From IMG/VR virus record IMGVR_UViG_3300046318_000318: a DNA stretch of 64,000 bases; one strand, written 5' to 3'. A model generated the notes under the pieces. That model saw only the letters and a list, made by a program, of their open reading frames with translations, did not search any database and was not told the DNA's origin. The translations under genes were made by a program, and so were the position numbers. Numbering within the stretch: the first letter of the stretch is position 1; each line of letters opens with the position of its first letter. The stretch is from a virus (lineage: Duplodnaviria; Caudoviricetes). This document shows positions 2,050 to 34,425 of the stretch, in pieces.

Positions 2050-2673
2050 TCACTCACCAAAGATATCGGTAGGGTCACGACCCTCAGCCAAGATCTGTTG
2101 GATCTTATCCCATGTCAACAATATATCGTGACGTTCTTCTGTTGAAAGATCTTGATGACCTTCAAATAGTTCATCACAATACTGTTTAGCCACCCACTCA
2201 TACTTACCATCCACTTCAATGTCCTGGACCACACCATCCATCACCCTGCGGTAATAGTAGTGCTGATCATTACTTTGCTTAGGATCGATATCGATATAAG
2301 TGTCGCTGTAGCCATTGACGAGTTGTCTATGGTACATGTTTCGAAGGTCCGGCTGTGCCATGATGTAGTTTTGCATCATGGGTGTAGCGCTTCTCATACC
2401 TTCGATGTCATCTATCTGGATAATGACGTTAGGTTGATATAACCCACCGGCATGTCTGATAGCAGCTTTAGCTATCCTGATAGCTGTGTTATCATGGATT
2501 CTTGCATACAACTCTTTAGCACCTTGCATAAATCTTTGACCAGTTTCAGTCAGCGCATTACTGAACGACTGCATTTGGTTTTGGAAATACTGCAAAGTGC
2601 TTGGAGATTGATTTGGGAATGCAAGGTAATCAAAAGCCAAAGGTGAAGCTTCGATCACATTGATTTGATACAT
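2050..2673 (-). CDS. hypothetical protein, translationally coupled to RNAP exon 3
   Basis: ATG at 2673 overlaps the exon-3 stop (TAATG); preferred to the TTG at 2688. Confidence 0.8.
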   Translation of the reverse strand: MYQINVIEASPLAFDYLAFPNQSPSTLQYFQNQMQSFSNALTETGQRFMQGAKELYARIHDNTAIRIAKAAIRHAGGLYQPNVIIQIDDIEGMRSATPMMQNYIMAQPDLRNMYHRQLVNGYSDTYIDIDPKQSNDQHYYYRRVMDGVVQDIEVDGKYEWVAKQYCDELFEGHQDLSTEERHDILLTWDKIQQILAEGRDPTDIFGE

Positions 2674-2840
2674 TAACTCTCCAACCAAGATGAGATTGTT
2701 GCAATATTAGGCTTTGGGATACTTACGTTACCTGAAACCTGGAACGGCTTAGTCATCTGAAATATGTTAAACTCTGGTGAGAGAGGATACCACATATTAG
2801 ACATCTTTTCGTCAAGTGAGATAGAGACATTGAGAGCGTC
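2673..2840 (-). CDS. nvRNAP beta-prime N-terminal subunit, exon 3 (DALNVSISLDEK...SWLES*)
   Basis: 55 codons plus stop beginning with the last Asp of NADFDGD, preceded by intron terminal G; first 8 nt form P10 with intron 2. Confidence 0.88.
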   Translation of the reverse strand, partial: DALNVSISLDEKMSNMWYPLSPEFNIFQMTKPFQVSGNVSIPKPNIATISSWLES

Positions 2841-3185
2841 CATAACTACCTCACTCTAGCTTTAACTAAGTTCGCTAAACTTATTGATCTTGCTTAAGGA
2901 TCCTGATACTTTCATATCAGATTAGACTATATCTTCATCTTTCGATGCTCTTCGTTTCCACTCGCTTGAGTGTACTCCCATGTGGGATAGTCGTTGACCA
3001 CACTCCATGTAAGTATATATGTCTATACTTAGTTAGGAGCTTCGGTGCGGATTGCCCAATCCTTGTATCTTTTACCATACCCAGATAGTTACTCTGGCCA
3101 CTGCATATATTTCTATCGCAGTTTGGTGCACAAGGCTCTAAGGAGTTTCCCGCAATTAGAAGAGTTTAAACGACGGCAACACTCT
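2841..3185 (-). ncRNA. group I intron 2 (ORF-less, 345 nt) in the RNAP gene
   Basis: P AATTGCGGGAAA, Q AATCCGCA, R GTCAACGACTA, S AAGATATAGTC; P1 GACGGU/GCCGUC with U.G at the splice site; P10 AGAGUGUU/GACGCUCU; ends in G. Confidence 0.92.
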
Positions 3186-3206
3186 ACCGTCAAAATCAGC
3201 ATTTGG
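3186..3206 (-). CDS. nvRNAP beta-prime subunit, 21-nt micro-exon 2 (PNADFDG)
   Basis: CCA AAT GCT GAT TTT GAC GGT between two intron cores; restores HILTVRAPNADFDGD, same spacing as bacterial HPLVCAAYNADFDGD. Confidence 0.9.
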
Positions 3207-5197
3207 CTTATTGTCCAGTAAAGTCGCTCAGCTTCACAGCTTACCCTCTTTACCCGGTGCGCTTACACACCCACCTGTACTTTCATACAGGAACAGATCA
3301 TATCTTCATCCTTATTAAAGGATGCTCTCCGCTTCTTCCCTGCTTAGGGCTTTACTCGGTCGCAACTCCGATGATCGTTGAACTTTACGCATGGTTGATA
3401 AGAATCAACTTTAGCGTCTTAGCTGCTGATTACCCAATTCTTATATTTTTCAAACTATCACGCTCATCGTTTCCGATCACGTTGTAGTATATAAGACTCT
3501 AAAGGACTTCCCAGCAATTCAAAGAGATAACTTAGTCAATTACTCAACTAAGTGCCTTATCTCATCATTATTAAAATACAATGTCAATCGCCACACACCG
3601 CCTATCAATGCTTTTCTTCTAGCTATTGTAGGGATATATTGTCTAGCATACCCAAATTGCTGACTAATATCTATAGGACTTGTTATAATCCTAGTTTCGC
3701 CAGTTTCAACGTTTTCGATAAAATATCCGTTACCCCTAAAAGATCTTTTATCGAGACATAATTGTTTAAAGTACCTCAGCTCCTTATCGGTAAGATCTTT
3801 AAACTGTCCGTTGAAACTAAATTGCCAACCTTTAATCGGAATGTTCTTTAATCTTTTATTTTTAATAGATAGTTGAACACCCCATGAAACACCAGTTATT
3901 TTCTCACAAGCTGCCAGCGATTCAAATTTACGTTCTTTGCGTGTGAATATATTTCTAGCAGTAACTGGTATTTTTATTTGTAAATCTTCTAAGGATGGTT
4001 TTTCCTGAGGCCATGGTCTTGCATCTAATTTTCGTTTGAAACATAATCCGTCTGAATAGATTTTAATATCGGAAGATCTAAGTCTGACGGACACGGTTAG
4101 TTCAGAATATCCAAGTTTCAGAGAGCAATCCCTAGCACTTTTATATTCAGTCACCTCATCCGTGATTATGTTTTTAACAAGTATTGCTGAACCATACCTG
4201 AATTGATCGTACTCATTTTCTAAATTTTCATAATTTTTCCATTCTTTTAATTCAGATAGCCATTGAAACTGCATGTAATTTTCCCAAAGTTTACAACCGG
4301 GTTTTGTTTTTAACCGATGGTAAAGTAAATCATTACTCAAGCCTAATGCAATTGCGCATTGCGTCGGGTTATCATAAATAGTGATTTCATTGGTTTTAAC
4401 ATTTCTAGTTATGACGTCTATGGTATACTTTTTCTCATTTTCAAGAATTCTATTTACTTTTTCATCAGATCTATCACAATTCGAATAAATGACATTTCCT
4501 CTAGGTGTCACCCATTCTAAATTATCTAAGGTGTCAAAGCCAGGTATCTCATTTTTATGATTTACGTACAGCGATTCAACGTTTCTAGGATAATCTAGCC
4601 ATGCTAAGCACATAGCTCTGTGTCTGAAAAATTTGTAAGATGTATTCTCATTAAGGGAAACATCAGGAATACCTGAATAGGAATGGTAACCATCTCTATC
4701 ACAAAAAGCTTTTTTATCCACACCAGTTATCAAATTTCTAACTTTTCCTTCCTTTGTTATACCATATCTTGTAAAACCAGGAATATAAGCATGATCTTTG
4801 TGTACTGGATGTGATAAACCAACTGGAAATTTCCAAATCAAGTTGCTAGGATGAGAGTTATTAAAATCACCGTCCTCGAACATCAAGTGTAATAAATGCA
4901 CTTGACTTTCATGAACGTGAACGGGCTTAAAAGCCGAAGCTATGATAAACTCTATTGGATATAGACCAGGACCTCTTATCCAATCTAAGAAAATCAAAGT
5001 GCTTCCTGTTTCAGTTGAGATACACTCAATCTGAATGTTCTCTCGCGATATGACATCACCTTCTGAGTTAACAGAATAACGACCGTCAGACCAGGGTAGC
5101 GAAAGATAGTTTTGGGTTTGTAAATATTTACTAAGCATATATCCTTTCTATATAGAAAGGTATGCTAAACGGCGATTGACAATAATGATAAGAATTA
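3207..5197 (-). mobile_element. group I intron 1 (1991 nt) carrying an HNH homing endonuclease
   Basis: After the ORF: P AATTGCTGGGAA, Q AATCAGCAG, R GTTCAACGATCA, S AAGATATGATC (P7 GAUCA/UGAUC); exon ends in U (GCT); intron ends in G. Confidence 0.9.
3540..5138 (-). CDS. intron-encoded HNH homing endonuclease with C-terminal DNA-binding repeats
   Basis: VNHKNEIPGFDTLDNLEWVT HNH motif, degenerate first copy DGDFNNSHPSNLIW, repeats such as YKSARDCSLKLG and FESLAACEKITG. Confidence 0.88.
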   Translation of the reverse strand: MLSKYLQTQNYLSLPWSDGRYSVNSEGDVISRENIQIECISTETGSTLIFLDWIRGPGLYPIEFIIASAFKPVHVHESQVHLLHLMFEDGDFNNSHPSNLIWKFPVGLSHPVHKDHAYIPGFTRYGITKEGKVRNLITGVDKKAFCDRDGYHSYSGIPDVSLNENTSYKFFRHRAMCLAWLDYPRNVESLYVNHKNEIPGFDTLDNLEWVTPRGNVIYSNCDRSDEKVNRILENEKKYTIDVITRNVKTNEITIYDNPTQCAIALGLSNDLLYHRLKTKPGCKLWENYMQFQWLSELKEWKNYENLENEYDQFRYGSAILVKNIITDEVTEYKSARDCSLKLGYSELTVSVRLRSSDIKIYSDGLCFKRKLDARPWPQEKPSLEDLQIKIPVTARNIFTRKERKFESLAACEKITGVSWGVQLSIKNKRLKNIPIKGWQFSFNGQFKDLTDKELRYFKQLCLDKRSFRGNGYFIENVETGETRIITSPIDISQQFGYARQYIPTIARRKALIGGVWRLTLYFNNDEIRHLVE

Positions 5198-6439
5198 AGC
5201 GCGCACTGTTAAAATGTGCATTCCAATAGTGAGGTCATTTGGGTTCTTTTTGAACTTAGTAATCTTCACTCGTTGAGCCGACCCCTGCAAAAGGCTCGGA
5301 TTTCTTTGGAGACATACATACAAACCTTTATCAGGCGCTTCGTCTATCAGCTCCTGCATAAACCTTTCTAACAAGGGGTGGTGTTTGTTAGTATGTTTGT
5401 ATAGGAAACCAATAGAGTCATTCAGACCCATGCCGTAACGCCGCAGCTTATTCAACATGTGGATACGGTAAGCTGTGGTGGCCATACACCAAGGAGCTTC
5501 TATTTCATCATACTCTTTACCCGCTGTAATAGAGATGATAACTGCTCGGAATGAGAAGTTGGTTCTGGCTCCGAACATGTGTTTCCTGAAGTGACCGTGC
5601 TTATGAGCCATCAACAACAGGGTGTCGTTGTAGAAATCACAAAGCATGATCAAGGACTTAACTGTTCGGTTTTGCTTGGTCTTACTTGTCTGATCGTAAA
5701 AGTCTCTGTCAATAGACACCATCGTGTTGACAGCATTCACAGCCTTCATAATGGAAGGATCTGTGTATGTGCCTAGCGGTTGTGTATCAAAGATCAGGAC
5801 TATCTTGTTCGGCAAAGGCAGATACTCACTGAAAATTATCTTACGATAGTCTTTTAGCAAGGATTGAAGATAGTCTATCCTCTCACTCTTAAGCTCGAAC
5901 TTCTGAGTCTTAGGTGCAAACTCAGTCATGGAGAAGAGAGTATCCATGATGTAATCGAAATTAGTCACAAAGTAATTGTAACCGCGCTCGATATTGCACG
6001 TCATCAGTTTGGTCAGCACTTTGTCAGGTGTTTTAGCTGCTGTCGTATAGCTTGTGTTACAAAGCCATTCGATCACAGAGAACCCTGATTTGGTAAACCT
6101 CTTGATGAGCATCATGAAAACCACAGGAGAAATAAGCTTCTCTACCCCTACTGGTTGTTTGAGCCAGATGACTGGTTCGATATCTGACACAACTGAAGCT
6201 TTAACTTCAGTGTGACAGACTGGACAGATAGTACTCTTAGAATATTCACCTTTGGTATGTCCACATTGACAACTGGGAATCAGACTGATCTGATCACTAG
6301 AGAGATGTGTGGTAAGTTTCTCTTTGACAGCCTCACGTTCTTCAAGCGTAGAACACGCCATGTGGTTGATGAGGGTGGGGGTATGACGTAATGTATAAAA
6401 CATCTCGTCGTAGTTAACCAGTTCTTGGATAACAGGCAT
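5198..6439 (-). CDS. non-virion RNA polymerase beta-prime N-terminal subunit (phiKZ gp55-like), exon 1; spliced product 476 aa
   Basis: Zn finger CQCG...CPVC, FGARTNFSFRAVI, LQRNPSL, RVKITKFK; lies next to chimallin as in phiKZ. Confidence 0.9.
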
Positions 6440-6488
6440 GAGTTTCCTTTATGGTTGGTTGATGATACATTCAGACAGCGGTCACATA

Positions 6489-6497
6489 AAGTATATG
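6489..6497 (-). promoter_or_regulatory. candidate phage promoter core CATATACTT
   Basis: Same core upstream of chimallin (8563-8571) and in the longer repeats at 37136 and 47117; TATATACTT variant at 10965. Confidence 0.45.
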
Positions 6498-6523
6498 GTA
6501 TTAGTAAAATTAACAAACAGGAC

Positions 6524-6559
6524 AAAAAAAGATACACCAGCCGAAGCTGGTGTATCTTT
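6524..6559. terminator. intrinsic terminator with UUCG loop on the minus strand
   Basis: AAAGATACACCAGC-CGAA-GCTGGTGTATCTTT. Confidence 0.85.
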
Positions 6560-6583
6560 ATGTCAGATCCGTATCTCTACAGA

Positions 6584-8452
6584 TCAGTAGCGGTAACCAC
6601 CCATGTTGATGTAGTTCTGCATATGCTGAGGAGCCATGCCGAAACCCATGAACGATTGAGTAGGTGCCAGCAGACCAGCGTTGGCGAAACTTGCAACACC
6701 GCGTTGGTTGTTGAAGTCTGCACCAGACATTGGGCTGTTGATACGCACCATCAGGTTGCAAGCCTGAATACCCTTACGCAGAGCGTCCAGGAACGTAGCG
6801 CTGAAGGTCACTCGTTGAGCATAGCCTGTAAACACAGCGGACTCATTGGACATGCTGGAGATCATACGCTTGCGATCGGAGAGACGCTCTGCCAACGAGA
6901 TGTTGGTGTTCAGGTACGTTTCGGTGAACTGACGCAATGCATGCACATTGTTGGCACCAAGGATGTTGGCAGCTGCCAAGTAGTCGATGTCACGGATGTC
7001 ACGCTGAGCACCGTTGCGATCGGTGTAGTAACCCAGATGGACACGGTTACCCACATCCACGAACATCTGTGCGTTGTTCGGGAAATAGCGACCGAAGTTG
7101 CCAGCAGTCAGTTCCTGAGCAGCTTTGTACATGATGTCGTAAGCACCACCACCGCTTGCAGCAGCTGCACTGTACAGACCAGTATACCATGCCTGAGGAC
7201 CAGCTTCTGGGCAGTCAACAGCAACCATCAGACCAGGCTGAACCAGAGTGTTCAAGAACTGACCCAAGTTCTCAGTCGTAAAACTGGAAGACTTGGTGTC
7301 GAGGATGTTGCTGATACCAGTGGGTTGATTGTCAAAGTTGCCTTCGATGTTCAACGCACCTGCATCACGCAGATCCAAATCCTTAGTCATCTGGGGTCGG
7401 AAGATCTGGTAGTAGTTGTTGTTCAACGCCAGAGCATCCATGTTCGCCACTGCCAACAGCATGTTAGCTGGAGTGTATGCGTGAGCACTGGACAGAGTGG
7501 TGATCACAGCACGAGCTGCAAACTTCTGTGGCAAACGCTGTTGTGCAGGCATGTAGGGGTTGACCATGGGTTCACGAGGAGCCCAGAGCATTTCTACAAA
7601 GCCGCCAACTTCACTGATGCGAGTCTCACGACCGCCGCTGTTCAGACTGCGGTTCTGATTTTGGTTCTGATTGTTCTGAGCTGCAAAGCTCAGTTGGAAG
7701 TCAGAACGAATCAAGTTACCGACATCGTCAGCCACAGGTGTCGAACCAAAGGTCATGTTGATGACCAATTGTTGACCCGTAGGGATCTGCGACAGGTTCA
7801 GATCCTGGAACGTAGGAACCAGTTGAGACAACTCAGTACCGTTAGCCAAGCCAGCGTTCAGTGCCAGCTTATACACAGCAGCTTTGTCCTTCGTATTGAA
7901 AGTAGCTGGTACGACAGTGGCGTCGGTGAACCGCAGTTCGTGCTGAGGAAACGCACGACCAACAGCCGCCTTGGCTTTTGCAATCAAGATGTCGTCGAGA
8001 GCATCGCCCGCTACCCGATACAACTCGATTTGCTTTTGGTGGTGGTACTGCACCACAGGAGTGGGTTTGTCACCAGTTGCTTCGAGGATCAGCACATGGA
8101 ATGCTACCTTGTTAGGTACATCCTTCAGACGCATCGCCACGACCAGGCAAGAGAATGCCAGAGCCGTTTCGTTCTGGTTGTCCAGATCCAGAATGCTGAT
8201 CAGACTGTCAGAACTTGCGTTCTTGTAGATCTCAATAAGTGCGGTCTTGAGGTCGTTGTAAGCCTCAGACCCAATTGAGCGACCGATAGGGGCACCGAAG
8301 ATGTTACCGCCGGAACCGAAGTTCCAAGAAGATTTCACAGGTGCTTGTTGGGTAGCAGTAGCTGCTTGACCAGGAGAACCGGCTTGGGTGAAAGCGGTTG
8401 CTTCAGCAGAGGTTGCAGAAGCGGAAGAGTTGTTACCAGTATTGAGAGCCAT
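6584..8452 (-). CDS. chmA: chimallin, major phage nuclear shell protein (phiKZ gp54-like)
   Basis: 622 aa, low-complexity N-terminus then FGAPIGRSIGSE; host-like optimised codons; syntenic with the nvRNAP subunit. Confidence 0.85.
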   Translation of the reverse strand: MALNTGNNSSASATSAEATAFTQAGSPGQAATATQQAPVKSSWNFGSGGNIFGAPIGRSIGSEAYNDLKTALIEIYKNASSDSLISILDLDNQNETALAFSCLVVAMRLKDVPNKVAFHVLILEATGDKPTPVVQYHHQKQIELYRVAGDALDDILIAKAKAAVGRAFPQHELRFTDATVVPATFNTKDKAAVYKLALNAGLANGTELSQLVPTFQDLNLSQIPTGQQLVINMTFGSTPVADDVGNLIRSDFQLSFAAQNNQNQNQNRSLNSGGRETRISEVGGFVEMLWAPREPMVNPYMPAQQRLPQKFAARAVITTLSSAHAYTPANMLLAVANMDALALNNNYYQIFRPQMTKDLDLRDAGALNIEGNFDNQPTGISNILDTKSSSFTTENLGQFLNTLVQPGLMVAVDCPEAGPQAWYTGLYSAAAASGGGAYDIMYKAAQELTAGNFGRYFPNNAQMFVDVGNRVHLGYYTDRNGAQRDIRDIDYLAAANILGANNVHALRQFTETYLNTNISLAERLSDRKRMISSMSNESAVFTGYAQRVTFSATFLDALRKGIQACNLMVRINSPMSGADFNNQRGVASFANAGLLAPTQSFMGFGMAPQHMQNYINMGGYRY

Positions 8453-8752
8453 GATTTTCCTTGAGTTATGGAAGGTTAAAATTGATTGTGCACAATCAGC
8501 CTTTAGAGCTAAAGACTAAGCAGAACTACTCGTTAAAACTAATTATCGACTAGGGCCAAATAAAGTATATGAACCCTGGTTTTTTTAGAAACGGGATTTT
8601 TGCGGCCAAGAGTTTACTCAGAGGTTACCCTCTAAGTTGCACGGACGTTCAGTTCCATACTATAAGTATACTGTCTGTAAAAAATGTACCTAACTTTTAT
8701 CTTAAGTCTAATCACTATAGCAATCTTATGAATTATTTTTAAAGCCAGAACC

Positions 8753-9832
8753 ATGTACGAGCTTTTCACAAAACGTTTCGAAGAAAATAACGATATCATA
8801 CGTCCTGGTCAAATAGACCTCATCAAGAGAAACTATCAGAAACAGATCACTAAAATTGAAAACTATTACAGAGCATCTGGCTTTAGTGTAAGAAGCAAAC
8901 ATTTGTTCTGTAGGATCATCACGACAGCTTTATCTGGCATGTCTTTAGATATATACAGATTCAATCAGCTGAATGATCTAAGGGCCAATAACTACGCTAG
9001 GTATTTTGAACTGACCTCAGAAGTAAGCTTTGGTAAATTCAGAAAAGACTTTCTATATAGAGGGTTGACTGGTTTGCTATCTATATCCGAATATTTCGAC
9101 GTAGCTGAGGCTTATAGAGACTGGGAAAACTTAAGACCTGTGGAGGTACTTACACACAACGTAAGCAACACAAGGTTTTTACTACCTGACAATCCAAACT
9201 ACAACAGTGAAGAAGGCATCAACTACGTCAAGATAGACATACCTAAGTTATTGTTGATGTACAGAGCTTTCTATGAGAAACAGGTAAGTGCCAGAGGAGA
9301 TGTTGACGGTGGTATGGTCCCCGTGGCTCAGTTTGTCATGAGGTATGTATTACCTAACATGATGAGATCTCATTTAGAGCTGGTTTTGTTTAACAGATTT
9401 AACAATTTGTTAACTGGTGAGCCTATGGGTGAGACTTATAAGAACCACCCTTTTCCTGTTCTGGATCAAGATAAGTCTTTAGATAATGTTCTCTATGAGC
9501 TGGTCAAACATGTTCAAAGAAAACCTATGCACTATTATAGTGTATTGAAGCTGATACCTTCTGTCTACTCAGAAGACTTTCAACAGTTTGGTCTGATGCC
9601 TGATTTAGCACCTACCAAACAAGTCTGGTGGTATCTGCTTATGTCTAAGAGAAGAGTTATGGAAATGTTAATGACACAGAACCCTGAGAGGGGTGAGAGG
9701 TTAAACAATTTCTATATACAGGATCTTAAAGTAGATCTGCAAAGATTGAACAGAGACAACAGTCTGAATTTCATGAAACAAGATGATTTGTTCATGGATG
9801 ATATACTGTTTGCTAATGAACATTCTAAATAA
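8753..9832 (+). CDS. conserved phiKZ-like hypothetical protein
   Basis: 359-aa ORF divergent from chmA; synteny. Confidence 0.75.
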   Translation: MYELFTKRFEENNDIIRPGQIDLIKRNYQKQITKIENYYRASGFSVRSKHLFCRIITTALSGMSLDIYRFNQLNDLRANNYARYFELTSEVSFGKFRKDFLYRGLTGLLSISEYFDVAEAYRDWENLRPVEVLTHNVSNTRFLLPDNPNYNSEEGINYVKIDIPKLLLMYRAFYEKQVSARGDVDGGMVPVAQFVMRYVLPNMMRSHLELVLFNRFNNLLTGEPMGETYKNHPFPVLDQDKSLDNVLYELVKHVQRKPMHYYSVLKLIPSVYSEDFQQFGLMPDLAPTKQVWWYLLMSKRRVMEMLMTQNPERGERLNNFYIQDLKVDLQRLNRDNSLNFMKQDDLFMDDILFANEHSK

Positions 9833-19632: not shown

Positions 19633-20244
19633 TCACTGTGTCATTCTCATGTCTGTTAAAATCAGTTTTCTGACTGTGGTTTCCAAGCCAGGGAAAACTG
19701 TCAAAACATTAGACATCAAGTTATTCCTTACCTTATTCCTAAGATTGAAGTCGTTATCTGCATTGGTAGGATCTGTCAGATACTTTAACCTATAGAAGTT
19801 AGCATACTCTATAATAGTCTTCTTAGAAGTAGTTAACAAAGGTCTCTGCACATTACCATTTTGATAAGCCATCACTCTACTTCTACCTTGACAGCTGGTC
19901 ATCAGGTACCATTCAGTAGCATCAGACAGATGATGACCTGTAAGTACAGGCTTATCCATAGATTGAAATATGGTGTTTCTTTTTCTAGACCAAAAGGATT
20001 CTAGAGATGTGGAGTTATCAAACTCAGACAACTTGAAGGTTTTATAAGCTAAACCAAGCTGATTAGCTGTCTCTTTACAGAAAGCCAGTTCAGTCTTACT
20101 AAAGTCTGTGTTATGATCCACAGTAAGTAAAGTTACATTAACTCTCTTCCTTAACAGAAGGTGTAAAAGTACGACCGAATCTATACCGCCTGAAAAAGCA
20201 AGGTAAACATCTTTTTGAAGAGTCTTAAGTACATTGAGTTTCAT
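19633..20244 (-). CDS. tilS: tRNA(Ile)-lysidine synthase, catalytic domain only
   Basis: PP-loop LAFSGGIDSVVL, TGHHLSDATE, RPLL, DPTN...RNKVR; start MKLNV. Confidence 0.85.
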   Translation of the reverse strand: MKLNVLKTLQKDVYLAFSGGIDSVVLLHLLLRKRVNVTLLTVDHNTDFSKTELAFCKETANQLGLAYKTFKLSEFDNSTSLESFWSRKRNTIFQSMDKPVLTGHHLSDATEWYLMTSCQGRSRVMAYQNGNVQRPLLTTSKKTIIEYANFYRLKYLTDPTNADNDFNLRNKVRNNLMSNVLTVFPGLETTVRKLILTDMRMTQ

Positions 20245-20252
20245 GTGTTGAG

Positions 20253-20305
20253 AAAAAAAGAAAAGACACAACTGCTCAGAATCTATAAGACTCTAAGCAG
20301 TTGTG
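20253..20305 (-). terminator. terminator-like hairpin after the tRNA pair
   Basis: CACAACTGCT...AGCAGTTGTG followed by a U-rich run on the minus strand. Confidence 0.6.
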
Positions 20306-20314
20306 CTTTTTTGT

Positions 20315-20626
20315 TGGTAGGCAGGATGAGATTCGAACTCACTATCTTCGGCTTCACATTTGTGTTAGTTTCCTAACTCTGTGGACTATATCACCATCCT
20401 TAACTTAATATTAGGATGTCGGGCGCTTTACTCTGTTATTAAGAAGATTCTACTTCTCAGATAGTCTCTGCACTTTCCTAGGGTATACCCTAAGCTTAGC
20501 TCAGTATTGCCGTCGTCATTATACGTTACGGTTTCACTGAATTCACCCGATTATTCAATACTGATTACTCAGTAAGGTCACCATTGAGATGAGGCCGCCG
20601 CTTATAACCCCTTAAGCTTCCCGCCT
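20315..20626 (-). tRNA. tRNA with CAU anticodon (probably Ile2), interrupted at 36/37; exons 20589-20626 and 20315-20354
   Basis: Acceptor AGGCGGG/CCTGCCT-A-CCA, loop CT-CAT|AA, T arm GTGAG-TTCGAAT-CTCAT; adjacent to tilS. Confidence 0.88.
20355..20588 (-). ncRNA. group I intron (IC3-like, 234 nt) in tRNA-CAU
   Basis: GAATTCAGTGAAACC, AATACTGAGCTAAGC, GTGCAGAGACTA, GATATAGTCC; P1 CAU/GUG; ends in G; layout like the Azoarcus tRNA-Ile intron. Confidence 0.9.
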
Positions 20627-20635
20627 ATTTTACAC

Positions 20636-20939
20636 TGGTCCGCCCGGCAAGAATCGAACTTGCAACTAAAACTTAGCGTCACACTATAGTTTTCACTACC
20701 AGGTTACCCTGTTTGTGCGCTGGACTTTGTCTTGATCATGACCTACTTATGATAGGTTTTAGATCTTTGCCGTCAAGTCTCTACACGTTCTATCCCTTTT
20801 GAAAAAGATAGCTTCGCTCGGCGTTGGCATCAGCATTACCTGTTAAGCGTTCACCGAATTTGACAAAATTCACTGAATACTTTCGACATCCAGTGCTCCT
20901 AATTGAAGGTTCTTGTTATATCCATTTAACTACGGGCAG
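20636..20939 (-). tRNA. tRNA-Arg(UCU) interrupted at 34/35; exons 20906-20939 and 20636-20676
   Basis: CTGCCCG/CGGGCGG-A-CCA, D arm GTTA-AATGGATA-TAAC with A20, loop CTT|CTAA, T arm GCAAG-TTCGATT-CTTGC. Confidence 0.88.
20677..20905 (-). ncRNA. group I intron (IC3-like, 229 nt) in tRNA-Arg
   Basis: AAATTCGGTGAA, AACGCCGAGC, GTGTAGAGACTT, GACAAAGTCC (P7 GACUU/AAGUC); short P1 with U.G; ends in G. Confidence 0.9.
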
Positions 20940-20944
20940 ATTAT

Positions 20945-21830
20945 CTTTAATAACACTTTATTCAAATGTTATTAAAGATACCCAATATCACTATTGGGTC
21001 TTACCACTTATTACTCACGTAAGACAAAGCTCACATTTTCACATTAGATTCTATATTCTTTTACTCTTATAGACTTTACAGTCAGAGATATTCCTTTAAG
21101 AATCTTACGTGGGTTTAAAGTCTTTCTACCATATCGTGTTATTAGTACCAGGGGCTGACTATGCAATCTTAGGCTTTTCCTGGATTCAGTCATGCTACAA
21201 CTAATAACGCATCAGAGTAATTACTTCTGATATTTGACTTAGGTAATCTCCATTAGACTTATACCTTCTGTATTTAATCCGACCAGACTGCCTTTCGCAT
21301 GTATCTGGTTTTACTGTTTCCAGTAGTGAGCTAAACTCACATTTCGGTCAGATTGGTCCCAGAGTAACTCTGGACTTTGGAGATGGGCACCCACTCGTTA
21401 AAGTGTTTTACCGTCTTTCGATAACTTTTACGCTCATTGACATAGCATGTGGTTTAAACATCGCTTGTCTTGATGGACTACAAGTTATTTTTTCGGTGGC
21501 GTCTTGTTTATCTGTCTGCTTAATCGTTGTCGCTATTCCAAGGGCGAGTCCACCCATCCTGGCGAATGAGCTTCAATCTCTCACGACTATCCTATAAACT
21601 TTTAAGCTTTTCCATTATTTCAGACCTTACAGCTAACGTCTATATCAGGCGATTAATATAGACATATGCGTATCTGTTGTCATGGCGACAGATGTTCTCG
21701 ATGATTGTTCAAGAACATCGATATTCCTCACATGAGTACATTACTGAAACTCATGCAACCTTTTACAAGGACGATATACTTAGGAACGCTAAGTATAATT
21801 AACTGTCTTTCACTCTCGTGTGGAGCTATT
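20945..21830 (-). ncRNA. candidate large structured ncRNA (~0.9 kb) upstream of the tRNAs
   Basis: No credible ORF; dense perfect hairpins and multi-branch helices, several GNRA loops. Confidence 0.5.
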
Positions 21831-21876
21831 GAACTTAAAGCCACCAGTATCAAGACTAATCCTGGTTTCAATGATA

Positions 21877-22074
21877 TTATTTATATACCGCGCAAGGCGG
21901 TCGAGGTTTTTCTGGTGGGGATTTGATAGACCCTGTCGTTGCAGCAACACGTTTAGCCCTAGCAGACTGCAATCGTTTAAGGCTGTTGTCTATCTCATCC
22001 AGTTTGAACAACGACACAAGGTCGCACGCTCTCCAGAAATAACCCCATGAGAAATCATTCCACATGGCGATCAC
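21877..22074 (-). CDS. hypothetical protein
   Basis: 65-aa ORF in operon orientation. Confidence 0.45.
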   Translation of the reverse strand: MIAMWNDFSWGYFWRACDLVSLFKLDEIDNSLKRLQSARAKRVAATTGSIKSPPEKPRPPCAVYK

Positions 22075-22078
22075 TTTC

Positions 22079-33434: not shown

Positions 33435-33743
33435 TGGCCCGCTCCGGAATCGAACCGGAACGCCCCTTACGAAAGCGTCAGATTTTAAGTCTGATCTCTA
33501 CCACTGCAGTTTTCACTGCCACTTTAGTGTGTTTGTGGTCTGGACTATCCCTTCAACTACATCCTAAATGTTTAGCTGGGCGATTATAGTCTCTGCACGT
33601 CTTTCTATATTTCTATAGAAATTTCGCTCAGGATTGGCATCAGCAATTAACTGTTAAGCTTTCCCTGAATTTACGCCATTTTACTACATTATTTCTAATG
33701 TAGGACACATCAAATATATGTCTACCTATTTCATCAGCGGGCC
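33435..33743 (-). tRNA. tRNA-Leu(UAA) interrupted in the D arm at 25/26; exons 33718-33743 and 33435-33495; CCA not encoded
   Basis: GGCCCGC/GCGGGCC-A, GGTAGACAT|A, TCAGA-CTTAAAA-TCTGA, long variable arm, TCCGG-TTCGATT-CCGGA. Confidence 0.9.
33496..33717 (-). ncRNA. group I intron (IC3-like, 222 nt) in the tRNA-Leu D arm
   Basis: AAATTCAGGGAAA, AATCCTGAGC, GTGCAGAGACTA, GGATAGTCC; P1 GACAU/GUGUC, P10 AUCAGA/UUUGAU; ends in G. Confidence 0.92.
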
Positions 33744-33754
33744 ACCCATGTACT

Positions 33755-34255
33755 CTATTTCTTTTCTAATCTGTAGTATTCTTTCTTTATTTCAGTTCTT
33801 TCGATGATCACGCCGCCATTTTGAACTTTGGCGCCATAAGAACCTGAACATTTTTTACTACAAAAAGGACCTGCTCTATTAGAAACATAATTAGTTATCT
33901 GATTTTTACTAGGGGTAAATATTTCCTCACACCCAGCACACTTTACAGGATCCACCTTTACTCGTTTAGCGTCTTCACTTGCGTGAACAGGCAGTGTTTT
34001 AACAATAAGGTTATTTAGAGAATTATTGGTGAAATTTCTATCGTGATGGTCAACAGTCTCACCGTCTTTTAACTTTTGTTTTAATTCAATTTCTTTTAAA
34101 GCCTTGGGGTAAGAGATGGTTTTGGTCTTACCTTTAGTCCCCTTAGCAGCTTTTGAATTATTTAAAACAATATGCTGTCGACCATCACTTCTGTGATAAG
34201 GACCTAAGACGGATGTATATTCTGGATATAATCCAAGAAGTATTTGCTTATCCAT
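33755..34255 (-). CDS. free-standing HNH endonuclease with C-terminal Cys4 Zn finger
   Basis: ETVDHHDRNFTNNSLNNL; CAGC...FCSKKC. Confidence 0.85.
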   Translation of the reverse strand: MDKQILLGLYPEYTSVLGPYHRSDGRQHIVLNNSKAAKGTKGKTKTISYPKALKEIELKQKLKDGETVDHHDRNFTNNSLNNLIVKTLPVHASEDAKRVKVDPVKCAGCEEIFTPSKNQITNYVSNRAGPFCSKKCSGSYGAKVQNGGVIIERTEIKKEYYRLEKK

Positions 34256-34350: not shown

Positions 34351-34425
34351 TGGTGCCGGATGTCTGATTTGAACAGACGACCTATCGCTTACAAGGCGAG
34401 TGCTCTACCCCTGAGCTAATCCGGC
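34351..34425 (-). tRNA. tRNA-Thr(UGU), no intron
   Basis: GCCGGAT/ATCCGGC-A-CCA, loop CT-TGT-AA, TTCAAAT T loop. Confidence 0.93.

Follow-up and report, generated by a model that had tools for sequence, protein, structure and literature searches.

Two different group I introns probably invaded the catalytic-loop codons of an RNA polymerase gene in an uncultured chimallivirus

The window analysed here is a 64,000-nt stretch of DNA from an uncultured virus (Duplodnaviria; Caudoviricetes; IMG/VR record IMGVR_UViG_3300046318_000318), and the public sequencing runs that contain it carry the label freshwater metagenomes. Its minus strand encodes at 6439..2673 a subunit of a multisubunit RNA polymerase, in a gene laid out as exon 1, intron 1, a micro-exon, intron 2, and exon 3 (Table 1). 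It is very probable that in this uncultured chimallivirus the codons of the catalytic loop of the polymerase have been invaded by two different group I introns, and both exon junctions are present, to the base, in a contig from an RNA library. The elements are of a known kind, selfish group I introns of which one carries a predicted homing endonuclease, in an unusually tight arrangement.

RESULTS

The catalytic motif is restored only by joining three exons. The DNA of exon 1 closes with ...CACATTTTAACAGTGCGCGCT followed by an in-frame TAA, and its protein ends in ...HILTVRA, with GCT as the last codon. The DNA of exon 3 starts with GACGCTCTCAATGTC..., and its frame stays open to the stop at 2673. 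Translation of the three joined pieces gives a 476-aa product reading ...HILTVRAPNADFDGDALNV..., in which the peptide spanning the junctions is ...ILTVRAPNADFDGDALNVSISLDEK. A preliminary description of this DNA, made from its letters alone, had proposed that exon 1 ends in HILTVRA before an in-frame TAA, that a micro-exon lies between two complete intron cores, that exon 3 begins with GAC, and that the joined product has 476 aa. The end of exon 1 was read in the sequence and in the list of open reading frames (ORFs), the two cores correspond to two full-model matches to Rfam RF00028, GAC stands at 2840, and joining the exons reproduced the length of the product. It had also held that the introns split the triad of metal-binding aspartates; they do, with two of the three on the micro-exon, not all of them, and the third as the first codon of exon 3. 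The NADFDGD metal-binding motif at its conserved position thus exists only after splicing, and only the spliced mRNA would encode ...HILTVRA-PNADFDG-DALNV... and the 476-aa subunit.

Protein profiles agree with this layout. In PHROG 2987 ("RNA polymerase beta subunit", 478 positions), exon 1 covers positions 1-413 (E 1.4e-115) and exon 3 covers positions 422-475 (E 4.6e-6); the gap between the two is filled exactly by the seven residues of the micro-exon (positions 415-421), which excludes chance as the origin of the layout. The spliced product also aligns without interruption through (N)ADFDGD with two intact homologs, gp381 of Burkholderia phage FLC9 (NADFDGD) and gp307 of Ralstonia phage FLC4-3B (NCDFDGD). 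An intein was ruled out, as there is no in-frame insert and ribozyme cores are present, and so was a group II intron, for which there is no Rfam match. An assembly artefact was ruled out by the same layout in several independent DNA runs and in two independent relatives.

Two metatranscriptome runs were among the public runs containing the stretch, and both were compared with two DNA runs (X1 and X13). The RNA run X20 yielded one 336-nt contig (record 18, depth about 20) with the joints 3206 to 5198 and 2840 to 3186, which skip 1991 nt and 345 nt, each with zero positional ambiguity, and leave 21 nt between them. Exon 3 contributes 140 nt to this contig and exon 1 contributes 175 nt (contig bases 162-336, which fall on 5198-5372), with the micro-exon between them. 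Both junctions predicted in the preliminary description, GCT/CCA and GGT/GAC (the slash marks the point of insertion here and below), are therefore found together in a single contig from an RNA library. Neither joint is present in X1, where the depth is about 82x here, or in X13. In X1, one DNA contig agrees with the window over the 3' end of intron 1 and departs from it at precisely 3207; this contig represents a further member of the intron family, lodged in some other gene, and so marks the boundary of intron 1 independently. Between 3206 and 3507, the intron core in X1 is covered 4 to 10 times as deeply as the flanking gene, and within it many contigs branch away. Since the depth over the intron cores (330-800) exceeds that of the flanks (82), the intron family must be multi-copy in the sampled community or genome.

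Both introns have the hallmarks of group I. The Rfam model RF00028 has a gathering score of 50 bits, and the matches of both introns, which span the full model (positions 1-253), lie above it, so the covariance model bears out the two cores named in the preliminary description (68.7 bits for intron 1; 83.7 bits and E 8e-20 for intron 2, matched at 3195..2903 on the minus strand). The core of intron 1 occupies the 3' end of its 1991 nt. Each intron is preceded by a 5' exon ending in U and closes with a terminal G (...AATAAG/CCA and ...GTTATG/GAC). The P1 helix of intron 2 is seen in the Rfam alignment, folds at -10.6 kcal/mol, and shows a fully compensatory change in two relatives, L004 and L005 (exon GAUGGU, guide GCCAUC); the pairing recurs in about a dozen other loci. 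For intron 1, the candidate guide would pair with exon GCGCU (U.G, C-G, G-C, C x A, G-C), and its counterpart in L004 has exon GUGCU and guide GGCAU with five contiguous clean pairs, which makes GGCAC the probable guide. An alternative 8-bp helix was rejected as the P1 of intron 1: it is found only in L005 and puts the splice-site U opposite A. The two introns are 66% identical to each other, and their guides and 3' ends differ. In the proposed splicing model, the primary transcript would carry all five pieces, and each ribozyme would recognise its own 5' splice site through P1 and excise itself at the terminal G; both introns are thus predicted to be autocatalytic.

Intron 1 also carries a long ORF between the 5' splice site and the guide, and the last codons of this ORF overlap the guide and run into P2. 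The ORF matches PHROG 59 and PHROG 959, both "HNH endonuclease" (E 8.5e-15 and 4e-12), and its motif VNHKN...DNLEWVTPRGN (the NHK...NLEW region) aligns with phiKZ gp56; Pfam gives weak NUMOD1 and HTH matches. By this resemblance, the product would be an I-HmuI-like endonuclease, and both its activity and its target are putative. A hairpin predicted over the Shine-Dalgarno sequence and AUG of the ORF (Table 1) suggests that the precursor RNA keeps translation of the endonuclease in check, a regulatory role that would resemble the translational control described for T4 intron endonucleases.

Table 1. Features of the polymerase gene and its surroundings, exons of the relative L004, and insertion sites in the gene (slash, point of insertion; L numbers, loci)
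Feature	Position	Strand	Remarks
Exon 1	5198..6439	-	414 codons; last base U; in the ORF list
Intron 1, group I	3207..5197	-	1991 nt; inserted at GCT/CCA (RA/PN); 3' end G
Hairpin over Shine-Dalgarno and AUG of endonuclease ORF	5135..5165	-	-12.6 kcal/mol, z -4.2, 0/200 shuffles as good
Predicted HNH homing-endonuclease ORF	3540..5138	-	532 aa; in P1 loop of intron 1
Proposed intron 1 internal guide GGCAC	3552..3556	-	from comparison with L004 and L005, ORF-less homologs
Intron 1 ribozyme core (P2/P3-P9)	3274..3584	-	RF00028 68.7 bits, E 2.5e-15
Micro-exon	3186..3206	-	21 nt; CCAAATGCTGATTTTGACGGT = PNADFDG
Intron 2, group I	2841..3185	-	345 nt; without ORF; inserted at GGT/GAC (DG/D); 3' end G
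Intron 2 internal guide GCCGUC	3172..3177	-	P1 with last six bases of micro-exon, GACGGU; terminal U.G
Exon 3	2673..2840	-	55 codons and stop; protein starts DALNVSISLDEK...; PHROG 2987 match
Chimallin gene (phage-nucleus shell protein), upstream neighbour	6584..8452	-	Pfam PF25677, E 1.2e-34
L004 exon 1	6001-7143		1143 nt
L004 exon 2	7514-7615		102 nt
L004 exon 3	7958-7969		12 nt, CCAAATGCTGAT
L004 exon 4	8309-8317		9 nt, TTTGATGGT
L004 exon 5	8665-8832		168 nt
Site RN/PS			L004, L005, L035, L073, L077; vB_PA32_GUMS (L086) as RN/PT
Site IA/TAMNA			L073
Site RA/PN			window, L004, L005
Site N/AD			phiKZ, vB_PA32_GUMS (L086)
Site NA/DF			L035, L037, L051, L073
Site AD/FD			L004, L005, L040, L047, L062, L084, L052 (uncertain)
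Site DG/D			commonest; includes window
Site GD/x			L074, L082, L052

The two relatives mentioned above carry even more introns in this gene. L004 (an IMG/VR contig, 77% amino acid identity) and L005 (a JGI contig, 82%; both values from the best tblastn segment) each have four ORF-less introns, at 6001-8832 and 6001-8814, respectively. Both have exons of only 12 nt (CCAAATGCTGAT) and 9 nt (TTTGATGGT), and six bases of the latter are taken up by the P1 of the last intron. Joining the exons gives an intact product of 476-477 aa for the window, L004, and L005 alike, with an identical catalytic region. A profile built from nine introns was run over 80 IMG/VR homologs to survey the locus more widely. 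Introns in this gene were found in at least 19 of the 80, and exons of 9-15 nt lie inside the motif in 6 of them. At least eight insertion sites could be read in the gene, seven of which fall within about 33 nt around the motif (Table 1). In L052 (6366-7411), the base before TTCGATGGTGAT at the first intron's 3' splice site is C and not G if the frame is kept, so this boundary is either unusual or misplaced. Introns are also not confined to this gene: nine RF00028 matches were found on a 113-kb contig of a relative, and the second beta-prime-like gene of a relative (PHROG 2986; L088:1448-3990, which is 9947-12489 on the contig of relative G001) reads LGAD, intron, TTCGAT, intron, GDTM, with an exon of 6 nt and pieces that sum to the profile length.

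Comparison of the window with L005 bears on mobility. At the insertion site of intron 1, L005 has an ORF-less intron with 98% identity to the intron 1 core, and intron 2 is 96% identical to L005 intron D. In the exon DNA, identity is about 57-83% per 100-nt segment in the first 1200 nt (about 70-76% taken over the first 1100 nt) and climbs to 94-95% in the final 230 nt, which flank the introns, so that introns with their flanking exons stand at 94-98% versus about 72% for the remaining gene; identity is 73% in chimallin and 85% in the gene downstream. This pattern fits that expected of homing with co-conversion of the flanks and would therefore mean that both introns moved in one tract. Intron 1, which carries the predicted endonuclease, would be the mobile partner, and intron 2, ORF-less and 21 nt away, most likely moves along within the same gene-conversion tract as intron 1 homes. 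The identity pattern is the main support for this putative hitchhiking. The neighbouring introns B and C of L005 share an almost identical 3' tail of about 45 nt.

The gene itself is supported by sequence comparison as that of the N-terminal beta-prime subunit of a non-virion multisubunit RNA polymerase (nvRNAP), a homolog of phiKZ gp55. Exon 1 matches chain A of PDB 7OGP, deposited as PHIKZ055 fused to PHIKZ056.1, with an E value of 2e-54, and the beta-prime chains of the AR9 nvRNAP more weakly, in line with the alignment to phiKZ gp55 and AR9 beta-prime envisaged in the preliminary description. Among jumbo phages, 299 records matched in tblastn, the best being Burkholderia phage FLC9 with 41% identity, and a near-identity DNA search of 50,697 phage records gave no useful match; the phage therefore has no close cultured relative. 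Because the upstream gene encodes chimallin, the phage is a nucleus-forming jumbo phage. The polymerase gene lies directly downstream of chimallin, and the same order is seen in phiKZ (gp54-gp55), FLC9, L004, and L005. By analogy with phiKZ, the polymerase would transcribe middle and late genes.

Two further group I introns were seen elsewhere in the window, both on the minus strand. The top-scoring one (20362-20615, 87.7 bits) lies just upstream of a 212-aa ORF (19633-20271, minus strand) with PP-loop ATPase-type matches (QueC-like and PAPS reductase PHROGs); upstream of this ORF, about 1.8 kb (20272-22078) holds no minus-strand ORF of 50 aa or more. The other is a core at 33519-33727 (59.7 bits), directly downstream of a 166-aa HNH endonuclease ORF (33755-34255, minus strand, PHROG 14913), in a stretch of about 1.6 kb without long ORFs and beside a tRNA-Thr gene (34351-34425).

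DISCUSSION

Group I introns split polymerase genes in several viruses. A single intron in the gp55 region of phiKZ was mentioned in the preliminary description as known, and the phiKZ sequence does contain one: gp55 ends in ...LCLKAPN, the intron behind it contains the HNH gene gp56 and a core scoring 75.6 bits with RF00028, and exon 2, annotated as PHIKZ056.1, starts with ADFDGDQLNL (phiKZ introns are mentioned in PMC11512511). The gene and its synteny after chimallin are the same as in the window, the intron likewise lies in the catalytic-loop codons, the HNH ORF starts just past the 5' splice site with the ribozyme core behind it, and the spliced protein is the subunit seen in PDB 7OGP. Whereas phiKZ has one intron, at AAT/GCT (N/ADFDGD), the window has two, 6 nt upstream and 15 nt downstream of the phiKZ site, and because they flank this site the seven codons of the window form an exon of their own. 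The two endonucleases share only about 27% identity over 180 residues. Two other cultured phages have introns in this gene that their records do not describe. Serratia phage 2050HW (L087, MF285618, 3947-5694) has an ORF-less intron at the second site of the window (NCDFDG/), with the same P1, and Pseudomonas phage vB_PA32_GUMS (Phikzvirus; L086, MN563784, 4501-7656) has an intron with a 278-aa ORF at RN/PT and one at the phiKZ site, N/ADF, with a decayed HNH remnant. Two introns inside the motif are found in neither phage, and the middle exon of vB_PA32_GUMS measures 108 nt. The record of phage Goslar gave only three RF00028 matches, scattered over the genome, and two of these fell below the gathering score.

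Very short exons between group I introns have been described elsewhere. As summarised in PMC10136302, orf142 of the Staphylococcus phage Twort has a 23-nt exon between introns 2 and 3 that can be skipped, and Coxiella 23S rRNA has an exon of 34 nt; organellar introns are also reported to flank very short exons, for example in placozoan cox1 (PMC5436844). Like the gene of the window, Twort orf142 is, as presented there, a protein-coding phage gene in which tandem group I introns enclose an exon of about 20 nt. Its introns are highly similar and the exon is skippable, whereas those of the window are 66% identical, have different guides, and show no sign of skipping. Unlike that of Twort, the micro-exon of the window encodes active-site residues, and in the relatives such exons reach 12, 9, and 6 nt. 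In Bodo saltans virus, polr2a and polr2b contain endonuclease-bearing "parental" and ORF-less "offspring" group I introns, and the authors propose that the offspring introns rely on trans-homing and serve virus-virus competition (Deeg et al. 2018, PMC5871332). The combination of endonuclease-bearing and ORF-less introns in a viral multisubunit RNA polymerase gene is the same as in the window; however, this is a giant virus of a eukaryote with another polymerase lineage, and the available text does not describe micro-exons. In contrast to the pairs outlined there, intron 2 of the window is not an offspring of intron 1, given 66% identity, although the tails of L005 introns B and C do recall the parental/offspring relation. 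A functional precedent is gp210 of PhiPA3, where the intron endonuclease cuts the intron-less allele of a co-infecting relative and confers a competitive advantage (Birkholz et al. 2024, PMC11620839). There, as predicted for the window, an intron-encoded HNH endonuclease sits inside a chimallivirus polymerase subunit gene, but gp210 is a virion RNA polymerase gene with a single intron, whereas the gene of the window is of the non-virion type and its endonuclease is a putative one.

In our literature searches, no paper was found on micro-exons in jumbo-phage polymerase genes, and a 2025 review of nucleus-forming phages does not mention them. The arrangement, called unusual in the preliminary description, is so with respect to the searched literature, but it is recurrent, as the 6 of 80 IMG/VR loci with 9-15-nt exons illustrate. 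As far as the searched literature shows, exons of 12, 9, and 6 nt, with up to four introns per gene, would mark the lower size limit for exons between group I introns in any phage or bacterial gene.

Several observations weigh against the reading proposed here. The evidence from RNA consists of one assembled contig, found in one run, that differs from the window at one base (5288), and RNA libraries can carry DNA, so the X20 sample might have held an intron-less allele, although in that case the exon junctions would still be confirmed. The proposed P1 of intron 1 in the window is weak (three pairs, a C x A mismatch, one pair), and a search of the possible pairings gave no convincing P10 for this intron and no stronger P1. 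For the endonuclease ORF, no HNH domain reaches the Pfam threshold, and the ORF has no counterpart to the last metal-ligand His of phiKZ gp56. Finally, L005 has an extra intron (C) between the two shared ones and no endonuclease ORF in its first-site intron, so a single simple conversion event is not sufficient to explain the identity pattern.

Could the joined contig come from a near-identical co-occurring strain that never had the two introns or lost them, while the copy in the window splices poorly or not at all? The one differing base in the 175 nt of exon 1, the polymorphic intron content among relatives, and the possible DNA in RNA libraries would all agree with such a strain, but both joints are absent from the two DNA runs, including X1 with about 82x. 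Moreover, the intron and the endonuclease also occur in run X20 with sequence that matches the window exactly, neither ribozyme core is damaged and both score well above threshold, and if an essential polymerase subunit were encoded by a copy unable to splice, the outcome would be lethal. We therefore regard this explanation as improbable. Still less probable is alternative splicing, in which the introns would sometimes act jointly and skip the 21-nt exon to give a subunit without PNADFDG. Since 21 is divisible by three, this catalytically dead form would stay in frame, and it might act on the polymerase as a regulator or a poison. Such skipping has been described in Twort orf142, where the exon has 23 nt, and in tandem introns engineered from Tetrahymena (PMC10136302), yet in that engineering study it was suppressed by differences such as those between the introns of the window, which are 66% identical and have different guides and 3' ends. 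The joint expected from skipping, 2840 to 5198, is also absent from both RNA runs, a weak negative as assembled contigs can miss rare forms. That the gene is a decaying pseudogene whose work is done by another polymerase copy is hardly credible. A second beta-prime-like gene does exist, as seen in a relative, but it belongs to a different family (PHROG 2986, another beta-prime-like subunit) and is itself split by introns; in addition, all three exons keep an open frame and conserved residues, the diverged loci L004 and L005 give intact products just as the window does, and the mature junctions are present in an RNA library. Invasion by two splicing introns thus remains by far the best explanation.

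The distribution of sites among relatives suggests that this locus shows one of the states of a homing hot spot that spans the population, where several intron lineages would compete for about 30 very conserved nucleotides. In exons as short as 6-12 nt, the P10 of one ribozyme and the following ribozyme's P1 can hardly both be accommodated, so splicing would have to be ordered or cooperative. The intron density may be tolerated because these phages transcribe in a ribosome-free nucleus, and the endonucleases may be weapons between co-infecting phages, as was shown for PhiPA3 gp210. The introns may also be of some benefit to the phage. A joint picture, in which the roughly 30 nt of the chimallivirus catalytic loop are a battlefield of multiple homing lineages that accounts for the extreme exons, the constrained splicing, the tolerance in the nucleus, and the use of endonucleases as weapons, is put forward tentatively and may well not hold as a whole.

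The finding has consequences for annotation. Gene callers give a truncated polymerase subunit without catalytic aspartates and a stray 56-aa ORF, and the same fault is present in records of cultured phages (PHIKZ056.1 in phiKZ, two "RpoBC" coding sequences in 2050HW, and vB_PA32_GUMS). The locus and its relatives also supply natural test cases where a single exon of 21, 12, 9, or 6 nt has to serve two ribozymes, so that splice-site choice, splicing order, and the avoidance of exon skipping become directly testable. For the phage, the arrangement means that both ribozymes need to work in every round of infection before this polymerase can be built. The sharp rise in identity around the introns is a field signature of homing between diverged phages, and it fits the idea that intron endonucleases shape the competition among nucleus-forming phages.

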